A stretch of 64,000 bases of DNA from Chrysomallon squamiferum (taxonomy: Eukaryota > Animalia > Mollusca), in the NCBI GenBank assembly GCA_012295275.1, contig CM022670.1:15252001-15316000 (forward strand), in the 5' to 3' direction. The first letter of the stretch is position 1. Every line of letters starts with the position of its first letter. Below are positions 32,364 through 64,000 of the stretch, one piece after another. The notes beneath the pieces were generated by a model. The model was not told the origin of the DNA. It did not search any database and saw nothing but the letters and a program-made list of their open reading frames with translations. The position numbers were made by a program, and so were the translations under genes.

Positions 32364-34986
32364 TTTGGATTATTTTAGTAAATAGAAGAAAGAAAACAAA
32401 AGCTCAGGATTTAGGGAGGGATAAGGGTGGATAACAAAACTGCTTTGTGACAAATGTGCACCATCATGAAAACTCTTTATGGTTGATTATATACAGGATT
32501 AAAGAGGTTTGTGGAGGCCACATTTCTTTTTTCTTTTTTAAAATGAACACAATTTATGAGGTTTTTGCTTGTAAATGAGTCAAACTGAGGATTTCTGGTT
32601 TCACTGAAACTGAATGATTCAGTAGGTGGTGTGTTTGGATTCTGACCTCTCTTGTCTGCAGTGCCAAAGTCAGAATATTATTACACATGCTCTTAAGACA
32701 GACCTGAAGATGAGTGGGTATGCCTGATTGATCTTAAAAAGTAAAAAAACGCATGCACGCACACACAGACACACACACACATGCACACAAAAAACACATA
32801 CCATACATAAATAATCAACACATATACAGTTTCAAAGGCACATTTTGACATATTATGGCAGTGGTAAGATACATCACAGAGATAATTTGCATATTAATAT
32901 GAAAGTAATTTCAAATGAAATGCACTCTGACCAAAACTGAAGTCCTGATGAATATTTTGACAAACACACATGCTTATGTAATTATCAGCGGTAACAGAAA
33001 ATCAAAGCATCTTGTTAAACTTCAAGAATTGTAGATTTGTTTTTTCTCAAGGCTTTGCTGATGATATTTTATTGTATAGAGCTTATTGAAAGTTTCTTCA
33101 TTATGATATAATATGAATGTCAGTTCTGATGTTTATTAGTAAATAGTTTATATGAGAAATTTCTGAAATTAAACTTATTTTCTTTCTTACTCTGTATTGC
33201 TGTGTCTGTCTTAAGTTATAATAATAATTATTGTTATTAATACTTTCATTATTTTTATATTAAGATAAAGGTAAATCACCATCTTGGTTTTATTATTATT
33301 TTATTTTTTTATTTTTTGCATTAGGGTTGTTTGTATTATCATTTTGAACTTTATTTTCAGAAATGGATGTTAAATTATAAATCACAATGAAATAAATTAT
33401 GTCCTCCAATTCACAATATTAATGTGTTTTCCAGCAGTCCAGGTTTAAAATACCTTTATATCAAACAAGCAGATGTTGAAATGTGGTTCATAGTTTCACT
33501 TTTAACACTTAATGCCTTCATATTTATAAACAGACTACATGTTGAATAAATACATTAAAAAGTAATTATTTTGAGGTCATTAGTACTGCCTTGATCTTTC
33601 ACATTATTGAGAACTGTACAGATTTCTATCACTATATTAAGTCCCAATAATATGAATGTTTCAGTATACCTTAAAAATAAATTTGATAGTTTTTGTGTTC
33701 TAATTTTTATATTTCATTAATATATATATATATATATATATATAAGGATTAAAGTTATAGTTTAATGAGATATATTTGTCTCTCATTTCATTGCTTAATG
33801 TTTAAGTAAGTCTGGAATATTCTTTATATTTAGCTAAAATTAAAAATGACAATATTACTAGCCAGACATTTTCTTTTCCTAAAATAAACTGTATATAAAA
33901 TAAATTCTGTTTGAAATAGTTAAAAGACCATTGTTCTGTTTTAAAATGTTCCTATGGTATTTTTGGTTTTAAATACAACAGTATTCATTAAATACTATTC
34001 AGCTGTCTATGTTTTGAATAAAATACATTGAAATACCAATTTTTTTGTCATCAAGCTATATTCAAACTTGATTTCCCATTTTCCTGCAATTAATATTCTA
34101 ATGTCAAAGAAATCTAACCAGCTGATGTATGGGTAAGTAACTGATTATATGAAACAAACAAAACAAAAATTAAAAAATGAAATTTCATTATGTTTTGATA
34201 TAGATGGTTATTGGCAATCTTTTTAAAGAAAAATCTGCTGATTTTACTGTGAATACATTCCTAAAATTAAATAATTTACACAAGAATAAATAAATTGCTC
34301 ACAAAGGGAGATAACACAGTCTGCAGTCTGGCGTGTATTAGAAATATTTCATCAGTTACTTTTGTCCTTAGGTTGATTATTATTTAGTGAAATTACAAAG
34401 ATTTGTTTTATTTATAACTGCTGTGTGGTTTTGCTTGATTTGAAATGAAACTTCACCACGTGCATCGAGTAATTACTAGATGTCTTGCTCCAAAGACATT
34501 ATAACAAAGACATTCAGTGATTCATCATTAAATGAGAGTAATTGTTTTCCCCTCTGTATATGGACTGTTCTGTGGTTAATGATTAAATGGTAGCAAAACA
34601 TAGTTCTACATCTTCCACTGTAGTACTGCTATTACTGCTACTATGATTTCTACTACTAGCACTGTAGCTACTTCTGCTACTGCTACTACTTATAATAATA
34701 TTCTAGACCAAAATGTGTTCACTTAGGTACAAATATTCAGTCCTAGCCTTCAGTTGTAGAAAACCCTACACCATATATATGTTAATATATAATTATAAAA
34801 ATAACAAAAACATTTTTTTCTTTTTTCACTATTATTGTGATCAACAATGAAAGTGTTTTTAGTCATAACATATTTTGTAACAGTTTTCTTTTAGTTTTAT
34901 TTCAAACACTCGAGAGATGCATTTTACATTGCTTGTGGTTTCTAGCGGTATAATTTTATCAGACTGCTTCTTGTTTTCATTTTCTG

Positions 34987-35613
34987 TCCTGTAAAACCAA
35001 AATAATAGTATTTATTAAAATACCAATAACAACAAGAACAAACAACAGAAATCATCGGCATCAACATTGTCATATATACTACTATAAAAATCAACAGCTT
35101 TACTAAAGAAAGTACTTTCACATCAACAATAATAATGATTATCACTGTATCCATCATCATAATCTAGAAAAAACTAGAAAAAACAACAAAAAGCCCAAAA
35201 CAAGATAAACATGAAAGACTAATTAAAAGCACTTAATTCAAATAATTTCTATCCATCATTTCTTTTGTAGACTATGTCTTCTGTAATTACTAAATCATTT
35301 TTTGATTTCTAGATATCATATCTCGGCTAAATGTTTCGTAACGAGAGATTGTTTGAATTTCCTTTATCAAATTTTCTTTCTTAACTACACATACATATGT
35401 ATCTATTTTGTGAAAATGCATTAAAGAAAATCAAAATTTAATTGTGAATGCTGCATGAAATAACTTACAATCACTGTAGTAGCTGTAGCCAAAGCCGTAT
35501 GGTGATACGTATGGGTATGAAAAGCCCCAGGGCATGCGGTAGTACCACATCTGAGAAGACACAGTGGAAACCGCGAGGTAAAGTACCAACAGGAAGACAA
35601 GCAAATTCAACAT
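34987..35613 (-). CDS. G1: secreted Tyr/Gly/Pro-rich micropeptide, 48 aa (MLNLLVFLLVLYLAVSTVSS-QMWYYRMPWGFSYPYVSPYGFGYSYYSD)
   Basis: TATAAAA at 36304-36298; non-coding exon 1 ending 36234 (a|gtaagt); coding exon acceptor at 35623, ATG 35613, donor after 35469; stop T|GA completed at 34988-34987; AATAAA at 34901-34896. Same architecture as G2-G9. Confidence 0.8.
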
Positions 35614-61520: not shown

Positions 61521-63927
61521 AATGTTGCTGTGAAAATCAAACGGGATTTCAAAAGACGGATCCGATGTATGTCATGTCAAATACAGAATAAATGTTCCAG
61601 CAAACTTCTCGTGTCTGTCTTCTTAAATATTTATTTCATTATTTCTCTCACATTGACAGTTTTAGTCAAAAACTTCACATGGTTTAAAGTTAAGATAGGA
61701 AATTTTAGAAAATTATGTAAAATAAATTTCGAGAGAAATATAAATTTTCAAATCAAACCCCCCAAAAATGAAGAATACCAGAAATTTCAAATGTCTTTTG
61801 ACGTTTTTATATCAGTTATATTATGTATGAAACATACTCACAGGCATAGACTTTTGCACAAATAGTTATGTAAATAATAATATCAGAGAAAAGAAAGTAA
61901 AATAATAATAATAATAAAAAAAAAAAAAAAAAAAAAAAAAAGACAACAAACAAACAAGAAAACAACAACCAAGAAACGAAAGAAGGAAAAGAAAAAGAAA
62001 AGCAAGCAAGAAAACAAAATAAACAAACAAATATAAACCGAGTTTAGGACTGAAATGTAAGATTAAGTATATATGACAAATAACAGAAATATGTTCTTAA
62101 TATCTCTTCAGAGATAACATTACAGTTTATTGGCCTTTTTTCTCTCTTTTTTTTAACGATTATTTATTAATCTTTGAAATATTAATATATATTTTTCTTG
62201 TTCTCCCTAGTGCGATCGCATAAAAATATATCAGACACTTAGTTTGATTTTACTGAATTTTTATCACTTGATTAACACTGTTTATTGAACTTTGAAATAT
62301 TAAAAGATATAACACTGGAATGAAGACATTTTTTTCTGATTTAAGAAAGAATTATATTAGAAATATACTCCTGTTTATATGTCTCTTTGCCCCACTTTGA
62401 TCGCAGTAAAACAATTTGTTTAATTTGAATGAATCTGTATCATCTATTTAACAAAATATTATTCTTCTAGTACATACACTTTTGATAAGTAAAATTAGTT
62501 GTGATAGTAGTGGTAGTTGTAGCAAAAGTAATAGTGTTACAAGTGGTAAATTTGTACTAACAGAAGTAATTGTAGTAGTATTAGAAGTAGTAATGGCAAT
62601 TGTAATAATAGTAGAAGTACTGGCAGTAGTTCTAGTAGTTATTGTAACAGTAACAGTATTTGTCCTAATGATGAATATGAAACTGCTGTAAATTCGTTAA
62701 ACGTGTTAACAAAATTTTTCTTTTAACTAATAGATGTAGAGCACTAGAAACAACATAAATTTATATATCGAAGTCAAAATATTTCATGGTTAGTATAATA
62801 CACTCAATCTCATTTTGATAAACATTACAAAAATAACATATAATAATAATAATAATAATAATAATAATAATAATAATAATAAAATAAAATAAATAAACAA
62901 ATAGATAAATAATTCTGAAAATAAAATATGGTAGAAAAAGACAAAATTTAAATAAATAAATATTTAAAATAAAATAAATAAAAGGAAGGATGGAAGAAGA
63001 AGAACGTAATAATAATAAAATAATAATAATAATAATCAGAAATTGAGATGAGAATAGAAATAGCTATATATTACAAGAAGAATGAATATTTTAGATTTTT
63101 TTTTTTTTTAAGTAATAAACATGAAAGCGAATGAAGAGAACTGTAGGACTTCATCTAGAGCTGTGACAGATTTGTAATAATTGTTAAGCATTGACGTTTT
63201 ATTTTATAACAGGAAAATAACAAAAAGTTCTTTATGATGCTTAGTTCAGTCTCTCACATTAGCACACGGCACTTTCAATAACGTTCGCTAATTTAGTAGA
63301 AATAATTAGCTTTGTTATGGTATTTCATAGACGAGTATGTTTTTGTACGTCCGTTTATCAAAAGTACAACAACAAAATAATAATAATAAATAAATAAATA
63401 TAATTGAAAATAAAAAAACATAAAAAAAACTAACAAAACAATAATAACAAAAAAACAACAAAGAAAAAAACAAAAAAACCACACAAACAGTTAAAATAGA
63501 AAGAAAGAAAGAAAAAAGACAAAACCTATTCAAGGTGACTCCCTCTACTCTAGTTCGTAATACAAAGTGAAAACAATAAATCAGTATTTTGAGAACAAAT
63601 AAGGTCACACGTACTTGTCATTCTAGTAATTTTGATTACAGATTCATCTTAAATACGGAAACAGTACTTTTGAAAGTAAAATATAGCGGACATGATAAAA
63701 TGTTTTCTGCAAGATTCTGGGTATAAAAAGAGTAGCTGGAAGAACGTACAGCATCCAGCATCACTGACATTGTTTGAAAGTGTTCATCCTTCAGGGAAAA
63801 CGTAAGCATTTTACTTTATTCAACATAAAACTTTCACTTTAAAGTTCTATTTTATTTAGTTATCTTCACACCATCGATAGTTATATGTGATTAATTTACA
63901 AATGTTACGTTGTTTTCAGAGTTCAAA

Positions 63928-64000
63928 ATGATGAAATTTCTGCTTGTTTTCTTGTTGGTGTGTTTGGTGATTGCCTCTGTTTCAAGCACATTCCTTGGTT
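63928..64000 (+). CDS. G9: secreted Gly/Tyr-rich peptide, truncated by the window edge (MMKFLLVFLLVCLVIASVSS-TFLG...)
   Basis: TATA 63722, exon 1 ends 63801, acceptor ttttcag at 63919, ATG 63928. Confidence 0.88.
   Translation, partial: MMKFLLVFLLVCLVIASVSSTFLG

Follow-up and report, generated by a model that had tools for sequence, protein, structure and literature searches.

An array of at least nine small, predicted secreted glycine- and tyrosine-rich peptide genes from Chrysomallon squamiferum (the scaly-foot snail) and its putative role in a tanned matrix

We analyzed a stretch of 64,000 nucleotides from Chrysomallon squamiferum, known as the scaly-foot snail (GenBank assembly GCA_012295275.1, contig CM022670.1, positions 15,252,001 to 15,316,000, forward strand), which is referred to here as the window. 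The window is AT-rich animal DNA (28.4% GC) packed with microsatellites, and between 34.9 and 64 kb it carries nine related small genes, G1 to G9, all of which are three-exon paralogues. A first-pass annotation had claimed a nine-gene array at this place, and all nine genes were located there. G1-G9 represent a real, uncharacterised family of peptides that are predicted to be secreted and are rich in glycine (Gly, G) and tyrosine (Tyr, Y). Judged by analogy with other molluscs, the family most likely works like the molluscan G/Y tanned-matrix proteins, of which it would keep the GY segment and nothing else. We think it somewhat probable that these peptides are the bulk material from which a tough, tanned organic layer is built, such as the periostracum, the foot scale, the operculum or a similar structure.

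The common architecture of the genes agreed with the earlier description, since the 5' features were found in all nine genes and the 3' features in all eight complete genes. A TATA box is located 71-89 nt upstream of a GTAAG splice donor, exon 1 has no ATG and is non-coding, intron 1 is 118-1116 nt long, and a pyrimidine-AG acceptor lies 8-9 nt ahead of the ATG. The leader consists of 20 codons in every gene, with a short basic or polar start, a hydrophobic core and then SVSS (TVSS in G1). The signal peptides were called by hydropathy and the (-3,-1) rule, without SignalP, and alternative cleavage sites are possible. Intron 2 is placed at the stop codon or a few bases from it, and exon 3 contains AATAAA 53-87 nt past the chosen acceptor; the exon-3 acceptors are predictions picked from two or three candidates per gene. 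The precursors of the eight complete genes are 48-69 amino acids (aa) long and their mature parts 28-49 aa. It had also been stated that seven of the nine genes are absent from the list of open reading frames (ORFs). This fits a cut-off of 60 aa, which only G1 (60 aa when unspliced) and G2 (69 aa) reach; the ORFs of G3-G8 are 51-56 aa long, and that of the cut G9 is also shorter than 60 aa. As had been proposed, the array extends beyond the window edge, because G9 ends at base 64000 after 24 codons.

The array was also recovered by a filter of composition, which selects ORFs of 40-90 aa starting with ATG and possessing a hydrophobic start and a G/Y-rich tail. The filter gave seven matches in the window (G2-G8), none of which was in the first 34.8 kb. 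In 100 shuffles by 30-nt blocks, the mean was 0.03 matches and the maximum was 1. When the promoter/exon 1 DNA and the acceptor/signal DNA of G1 and G2 were compared with those of G5, the z values were 9.4-13.2, and these were reached by none of 1000 base shuffles in each case; for G1 against G2 they were 4.5-4.9, reached by 1 of 1000 shuffles. The divergent G1 and G2 are true, old paralogues. Profiles made from all nine genes found no tenth copy within the window (next best E value, 0.2-0.4), and an Rfam scan of the window gave no match.

The mature parts had been described as rich in Gly, Tyr and Trp. This was correct in general, except that G1 is poor in Gly (11%) and instead rich in Tyr and other aromatics, and that G2 has no Trp and possesses a pair of Cys. 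The peptides of the family range from 3.2 to 5.4 kDa, with 31-37% Gly (apart from G1), 23-35% Tyr and 0-6% Asn. Gly never exceeds 37% and GGG is absent from all eight peptides; YGGYG occurs once, in G2 only, and YGGWG in none of the eight. The aromatic residues mostly stand at every two to three positions. The majority of Tyr residues adjoin Gly in seven of the eight peptides (7 of 9 or 9 of 10 in G4-G8, 15 of 17 in G2 and 7 of 8 in G3), the exception being G1 (2 of 8). After the predicted processing, the side-chain charge is 0 in six of the eight peptides, +2 in G2 and +3 in G3. Lys occurs at most once per mature peptide and is terminal, and G4-G8 have no internal trypsin site.

With cleavage after Val-Ser-Ser, the N-terminal residue is Gln in five of the eight complete genes (G1 and G5-G8). 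An amide-type ending is likewise found in five of the eight, namely Gly in G3 and Gly-Lys-Arg in G5-G8, and an ending of the Gly-Lys-Arg type is described as a canonical amidation signal (PMC6669573). After the predicted processing, G4-G8 would have no charged side chain, 36% Gly, 30-32% Tyr and 35-42% aromatic residues in total, and the product of G5-G8 would be a peptide of 28 residues and 3.2 kDa that lacks any charged group and contains 36% Gly and 32% Tyr. The predicted C-termini are not conserved, being Y-amide, F-amide, free WF, free YY or free SD.

The individual genes are as follows. G1 (34896..36304, minus strand) is the most divergent member. Its TATA box is at 36304, exon 1 ends at 36234, the coding exon is 35622-35469 with the ATG at 35613, and the predicted exon 3 starts from 34988 with AATAAA at 34901; intron 2 splits the stop codon into T and GA. 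Its precursor of 48 aa contains a mature part of 28 aa, with Gln first, 29% Tyr, 11% Gly and a side-chain charge of 0. G2 (38776..40563, plus strand) has its TATA box at 38776, the end of exon 1 at 38864, the coding exon at 39981-40197, the ATG at 39989, the predicted exon 3 from 40496 and AATAAA at 40558, and its stop codon is split into TA and G. In its precursor of 69 aa, the mature part of 49 aa consists of the Cys pair followed by (GY)n, with 37% Gly, 35% Tyr and a side-chain charge of +2. A 53-nt repeat of 5.6 copies (38971-39261) lies in intron 1 of G2.

G3 (43837..44948, plus strand; TATA box 43837, exon 1 end 43916, coding exon 44358-44537, ATG 44366, predicted exon 3 from 44884, AATAAA 44943) encodes 56 aa, and its mature part of 36 aa has three Arg, a side-chain charge of +3 and a C-terminal Trp-Phe-Gly, which is a possible amide donor. 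G4 (46338..47206; TATA box 47206, exon 1 end 47127, coding exon 47008-46835, ATG 47000, predicted exon 3 from 46396, AATAAA 46343) is an inverted copy; it lies on the minus strand, like G1, and the remaining seven genes are on the plus strand. It encodes 53 aa, and the mature part of 33 aa has neither a charged residue nor a terminal Gly. G5 (48757..49547, plus strand; TATA box 48757, exon 1 end 48836, coding exon 48955-49114, ATG 48963, predicted exon 3 from 49471, AATAAA 49542) encodes 51 aa with Gln first and Gly-Lys-Arg last in the mature part, and the predicted product of 28 aa is uncharged and blocked at both ends. The coding sequence of G6 (53015..53797, plus strand; coding exon 53213-53372, ATG 53221, predicted exon 3 from 53721) is identical to that of G5. 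G7 (57236..58031, plus strand; coding exon 57434-57593, ATG 57442, predicted exon 3 from 57955) is of the G5 type with one Leu-to-Phe change, and its signal codons are the same as those of G9. G8 (60648..61592, plus strand; coding exon 60846-61005, ATG 60854, predicted exon 3 from 61517) is of the G5 type with one Leu-to-Trp change, and its intron 2 and exon 3 have diverged. G9 (63722..64000, plus strand, cut by the edge; TATA box 63722, exon 1 end 63801, ATG 63928) has Thr first in its mature part, as in G3 and G4, and its upstream DNA is closest to that of G4.

The genes G5-G8 lie in tandem segmental repeat units of 3.1-4.3 kb (48573..63520, plus strand), of which the ATG-to-ATG distances are 4258, 4221 and 3412 nt, with 3074 nt on to G9. 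Their coding regions have 0-5 differences, and the spacers of G5-G7 are mostly 93-100% alike. Copies of a 108-nt upstream block that are not followed by a gene are present in the same region at 51508, 55786 and 59232 (plus strand). The copies of the array are not echoes of the assembly, because they differ by 2-9% in introns and spacers. The patchwork seen in the array, such as G7 with the signal codons of G9 and a tail of the G5 type, and the inverted G4, is the trace of unequal crossing-over and gene conversion. The block from the TATA box to exon 1 of G3-G9 (81 nt, non-coding) has only 0-2 differing sites in the pairs compared. In contrast to this near-invariant block, the synonymous sites of G3 and G4 differ by 33% (p 5e-7), and the introns of G3 no longer align. 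Either gene conversion or selection of unusual strength on the 5' leader would account for the near-invariant block. A tree of the nine 5' blocks had none of its six branches supported. These results bear out the earlier claim of an amplified, lineage-specific family and point to recent amplification, in that G5-G8 are near-identical tandem units and no homologue was found in the databases. In run X1, one contig aligned to the interval 49460-49615 has an exon 3 of a type that is absent from the window and differs from that of G5 at 19 places. Among the 14 variants listed there, 8 occur in no copy of G6-G8 and one is unalignable. This contig weakly suggests that more copies or alleles exist beyond the window, from which X1 may not be independent.

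We then consider the selection on the coding regions. Between G3 and G4, synonymous change (13.5/40.9) exceeded replacement change (9.5/115.1), giving a pN/pS of 0.25 (Fisher p 3e-4). The values for G4 and G5 were 9/39 and 8/105 (pN/pS 0.33, p 0.018), and those for the signals of G2 and G3 were 6.5/14.6 and 6.5/45.4 (pN/pS 0.32, p 0.029). These are pairwise counts without a branch model; fractional values were rounded before testing, and the tail alignments used are uncertain. In addition, the changes were silent in five of the six variable signal codons of G3-G9. Because synonymous change exceeded replacement change in three of the four pairs, the reading frames are kept as protein under purifying selection. 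No sign of adaptive evolution was seen, as pN/pS was below 1 in all four comparisons and the amplified copies were homogenised. The evolution of the family thus looks like one of dosage rather than an arms race.

The 3' ends of the coding regions also differ. In G5-G8, intron 2 splits the last Arg codon (AG before the intron, G after it, then TGA), and the unspliced and spliced forms give the same peptide for G2 and G5-G8. When the C-terminal ends are aligned, G3 has W-F-G-stop, G4 has W-F-stop and G5-G8 have W/L-Y-G-K-R. It appears that single-base changes have abolished the amide signal in G4 and lengthened it in the G5 type.

Searches for homologues gave no relative of the family. An exact look-up in the sequence collection found none of ten family sequences. 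Word-seeded searches with profile A1 (8 matches, best E 0.23) and with G2 (7 matches, best E 0.11) gave only look-alikes in composition. HMMER over 1.84 billion representative proteins gave no match at E 0.001, a scan of metagenome contigs gave 593 pattern matches of which none was confirmed, and the PDB sequences gave one match, an antibody chain at E 0.78. In the ESM Atlas, G5 had a lead at 0.77 to a nematode peptide cluster and G2 had none. Shematrin was not among the database matches of the family, to which it was not directly compared pairwise. Orthology to a characterised family, which the first-pass annotation had named as grounds for refutation, was not found by the exact, word-seeded, HMMER, metagenome, PDB or Atlas searches. 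When each gene was left out and compared with the profile of the others as a control, G2 was found at E 0.21 and G1 at E 100; that is, the absence of a homologue means the absence of a close relative, and one as remote as G1 or G2 would be missed. The family motifs were absent from three of the four supplementary files of PMC11871041 and from 13 of PMC7142155, a weak result as these list few sequences; the portions of PMC12380485 and PMC7895826 that were available hold nothing on such peptides. Literature listings and the beginnings of abstracts contain no description of the family, and subscription journals could hold one. Among the sequencing runs searched, no RNA run was listed as containing these sequences. 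The exons of G5 were not covered by three metatranscriptome contig sets (X2-X4), which has no bearing on expression as there was no housekeeping control.

The Pfam matches were all below threshold, the best being that of G4 to Mfp-3 (PF04202; 16.7 bits, E 0.01, cut-off 22). The other five peptides scanned, G7 and the mature tails of G2-G4 had no match to Mfp-3. The likeness to Mfp-3s of Mytilus is that of small, secreted, polymorphic, Trp-containing proteins of low charge. However, Mfp-3 is a byssal plaque protein of bivalves and the host of G1-G9 is a gastropod, and gastropods have no byssus. We therefore do not assign the family to Mfp-3, as the match of G4 is below the cut-off and the plaque role is unfit for a gastropod. 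Ctenidins and acanthoscurrins contain more than 70% Gly in poly-Gly repeats and are cationic; with Gly of at most 37% and no GGG in the eight peptides, the family does not belong to them. The high-glycine-tyrosine KRTAP (PF11759), an intracellular protein of mammalian hair, was also rejected, since the peptides here have signal-like leaders and none of those scanned matched it. As to composition, Mfp-3 has 25-29% Gly and high Tyr/DOPA (3,4-dihydroxyphenylalanine), compared with 31-37% Gly (G1 11%) and 23-35% Tyr here; Mfp-3s is reported to have 29% Gly, 27% Tyr plus DOPA and a low charge, and to self-coacervate (PMC5132118).

Among the structural proteins of molluscs, small, secreted and polymorphic ones that are rich in G and Y form an established class. 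Dbfp9 and Dbfp15 of the quagga mussel are secreted proteins of 5-9 kDa with 31-38% Gly, 14-22% Tyr, GGYGG/GYG motifs and a C-terminal YGK (PMC6474901). They differ from G1-G9 in having acidic N-terminal blocks and more charge and in coming from the bivalve foot, and no homology was detected. The byssal proteins Dbfp9, Dbfp10 and Dbfp15, which were detected by mass spectrometry, have YGK, WGK and YGK as their last residues (PMC6474901). An amide-type ending thus occurs in structural molluscan proteins and is not a mark of antimicrobials. Secreted Gly/Tyr-rich proteins in which Tyr is flanked by Gly are also described in Lymnaea stagnalis (Lstag-sfc-6/-7/-8) and Pinctada maxima (PM241) (PMC6007483, PMC3191542). 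The flanking of Tyr by Gly is described in sfc-6/7/8 as favouring cross-linking by peroxidase; these proteins, which were picked in silico and not by proteomics, are produced next to a peroxidase at the edge of the mantle and are proposed as substrates for cross-linking in the tanning of the periostracum (PMC6007483). PM241 is proposed as a cross-linking substrate at the periostracal groove of the pearl oyster (PMC3191542). The GY regions of KRMP, shematrin and prismalin-14 of pearl oysters offer a further likeness, that of a chitin-binding Gly/Tyr region of about 4 kDa whose tanning by quinones has been proposed (PMC4498902, PMC3191542), and the isolated 4.2-kDa GY region of KRMP-3 is reported to bind chitin (PMC4498902). 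The difference is that KRMP has a Lys-rich basic domain ahead of the GY region, whereas G1-G9 are in effect the GY region alone. With no Lys-rich domain and at most one terminal Lys per mature peptide, they are not members of KRMP. They do share with KRMP a Gly/Tyr-rich region of about 4 kDa.

We propose that the peptides function as follows. The strong TATA promoter and the copy number would give a high output in one secretory epithelium, and the leader would be cut after Val-Ser-Ser. In G5-G8, the Gln would cyclise and the Gly-Lys-Arg would be trimmed to an amide, giving the chargeless 3.2-kDa peptide. Its aromatic residues, spaced by glycine, may cause condensation or the formation of sheets in seawater and may bind chitin, and a tyrosinase or a peroxidase may then link the Gly-flanked tyrosines (through DOPA-quinone or dityrosine) into an insoluble matrix. 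The cationic G2 and G3, the former with its Cys pair, would be minor partners. In terms of general peptide chemistry, a 30-mer that is rich in aromatics and has no charge would be ill-suited as a cationic antimicrobial but well suited to self-association. We judge the structural role to be the most likely on this ground and because the molluscan precedents are close in chemistry. The first-pass annotation had left defence and structure as two open functions. The balance now tilts toward the structural matrix, with defence kept as a less probable rival, because of the zero charge in the amplified copies, the near absence of NLP/CNC motifs, the lack of adaptive evolution, the gastropod host and the mantle-enriched G/Y genes.

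The data on the scaly-foot snail itself concern the site of such a matrix. Two of the four G/Y-motif gene models checked are mantle-enriched (16.7-fold and 11.8-fold) and neither of the other two was shown in a list for the mantle or the scale (PMC7142155 supplements). A tyrosinase domain is present in all three hard-part proteomes (PMC11871041). The periostracum is our best guess for the site, by analogy, because of these mantle-enriched models, the tyrosinase domain, and the enrichment of repeat-rich genes in the mantle and not in the scale epithelium (PMC7142155). The models CsqKR_Scaf65_31.24, Scaf228_17.24 and Scaf174_38.4 are listed as unannotated 'novel' Gly/Tyr-rich genes, two of them mantle-enriched (PMC7142155 supplementary tables). 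They differ from G1-G9 in their leaders and in their Met- or His-rich tails, and no repeat unit listed there matches. In Supplementary Data 3 of PMC7142155, CsqKR_Scaf65_31.24 (period 93) and Scaf228_17.24 (period 129) each seem to join a tandem pair of small secreted G/Y-rich genes in one model. These merged models suggest that there are more mis-annotated arrays of such genes.

Several points weigh against the tanned-matrix role. All the analogues resemble the family by composition and not by homology, and the tissue, the protein, the DOPA and the cross-links are all predictions from sequence. Mfp-3 is larger (5-7 kDa), has 10-18% Asn and carries some charge, compared with 3.2-5.4 kDa and 0-6% Asn in G1-G9, and the Lymnaea proteins and PM241 are described as basic and repeat-dominated in contrast to the neutral G4-G8, a comparison made by description only (PMC6007483, PMC3191542). 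The pN/pS between G3 and G5 is about 0.8 (6/37.8 synonymous and 14/106.2 replacement, p 0.79), meaning that rapid change of the tail is possible. Among the look-alikes that carry the name of an organism, the nearest are from nematodes, P0008 (E 5.6) and P0014 (E 1.7), neither of which is significant, the likeness being of low complexity only. As for the scale, the enrichment of repeat-rich genes mentioned above speaks against it as the site. Finally, Gln at the start and Gly-Lys-Arg at the end is the classic pattern of amidated peptides with bioactivity (PMC6669573 for the amidation signal). A Gly-Lys end is found in mussel byssal proteins as well, and the Gly-Lys-Arg end therefore does not decide between structure and defence.

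Among the rivals of the structural role, it is possible, though we doubt it, that G1-G9 are epithelial peptides for defence or symbiont control like NLP-29 and the caenacins, which would bind or entangle microbes rather than lyse them by charge, with G2 and G3 as the possible cationic ones. A vent gastropod lives among dense microbes, which counts for this explanation, as do the Gln start and the amide-type ending in five of the eight complete genes each, and the nematode look-alikes P0008 and P0014 end in GKR/GKK. The nlp-29 cluster of C. elegans is likewise described as clustered, small, secreted Gly/Tyr-rich genes that arose by recent, lineage-specific duplication (PMC2453101, PMC6780910). 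In contrast, the NLP/CNC peptides are described as basic, with YGGYG/YGGWG repeats, and as infection-induced (PMC6780910), and the nlp-29 cluster as adaptively evolving (PMC2453101), whereas here the charge is 0 in six of eight peptides, these motifs occur once in eight, and the copies are homogenised with pN/pS below 1 throughout. The family thus shares with NLP/CNC the small clustered secreted Gly/aromatic nature, but not, for the most part, the other characters, and we do not regard it as a member. Moreover, a single event gave rise to the four Gly-Lys-Arg endings, which may be a side effect of the change of a stop codon to Lys before the splice donor.

It seems improbable that the peptides are secreted signals (neuropeptide-like, pheromone or gland hormone) that act as aromatic amides through a receptor. 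The predicted pyroglutamate and amide ends and the single peptide right after the signal would suit this, but G4-G8 have neither internal dibasic sites nor repeated short motifs, the C-termini are not conserved, the body is of low complexity and poorly soluble, and the amplification is of the dosage type. The accessible part of a spiralian neuropeptide survey names no such family, and a glycine-rich sequence clustered there spuriously with neuropeptides (PMC8557429). We give slightly less weight still to a soft secretion, in which the same self-assembling chemistry would serve as uncross-linked parts of mucus, pedal glue or egg-mass jelly. The arguments from composition apply to it equally, and Mfp-3s and Dbfp9 are glue proteins (PMC5132118, PMC6474901); nothing, however, points to the foot or a reproductive gland over the mantle, which the tissue data on scaly-foot G/Y-rich genes favour. 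Very improbable, in our view, is that the genes are mostly silent, collapsed or over-assembled duplicates without a functional peptide. The coding sequences of G5 and G6 are identical and the peptides are known here from genes alone, but the frames, splice signals and AATAAA are intact in all eight complete genes, and the synonymous excess, the silent changes in five of six variable signal codons and the 2-9% difference in introns and spacers stand against it.

Upstream of the array, the window contains a Cys-loop receptor gene and an eIF2-alpha gene. The receptor gene (20380-23951, minus strand) has six exons with 73-88% identity per exon to the 'acetylcholine receptor subunit beta-like' of Gigantopelta aegis (P0009), which was the only receptor match at E 1e-10 or better among 1488 candidates. 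From its sequence, it looks like a lineage-restricted divergent receptor. Taken by itself, this identity would place the window in a gastropod near Peltospiridae, a family of the vents, and the divergence makes G. aegis itself an unlikely source. The eIF2-alpha gene (27475-32364, plus strand) has Pfam matches to S1 and EIF_2_alpha and stands tail to tail with G1; it offers a conserved anchor for locating the array in other genomes. An 18-nt minisatellite of 13.9 copies (31502-31753) lies in an intron of this gene. In positions 1-20000, 27 longer open frames were scanned and no convincing Pfam match was found (two were marginal, E about 0.009).

A stronger form of the structural role, which we consider unlikely, is that G1-G9 are the missing bulk protein of peltospirid armour and fill the non-chitin mass of the scales or the periostracum. 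About 95% of the scale mass is reported to be non-chitin (PMC9156901). The published proteome matched tryptic peptides to existing gene models with a 3-kDa filter, the periostracum was removed, and the insoluble fraction yielded nothing (PMC11871041). G4-G8 would escape such a proteome because they have no internal trypsin site and are below the usual ORF cut-offs. If this were true, the family would provide a minimal, chemically synthesisable building block of 28 residues for a tanned marine biomaterial, and the view that old, co-opted genes account for most of the scale would need to be qualified.

Under either function, the concept of molluscan genes for small secreted G/Y-rich products arranged in tandem is not new. 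The present family lies in a blind spot, since its genes are too short to be called, its sequences too simple for homology searches and its peptides free of trypsin sites for proteomics. If it is defensive, it would be a molluscan parallel to the nematode caenacins that works without positive charge. If it is structural, as we think most likely, its members would be among the shortest natural Gly/Tyr matrix peptides, and they would allow a direct and cheap test of the unexplained protein in the periostracum and scales of the vent snail.

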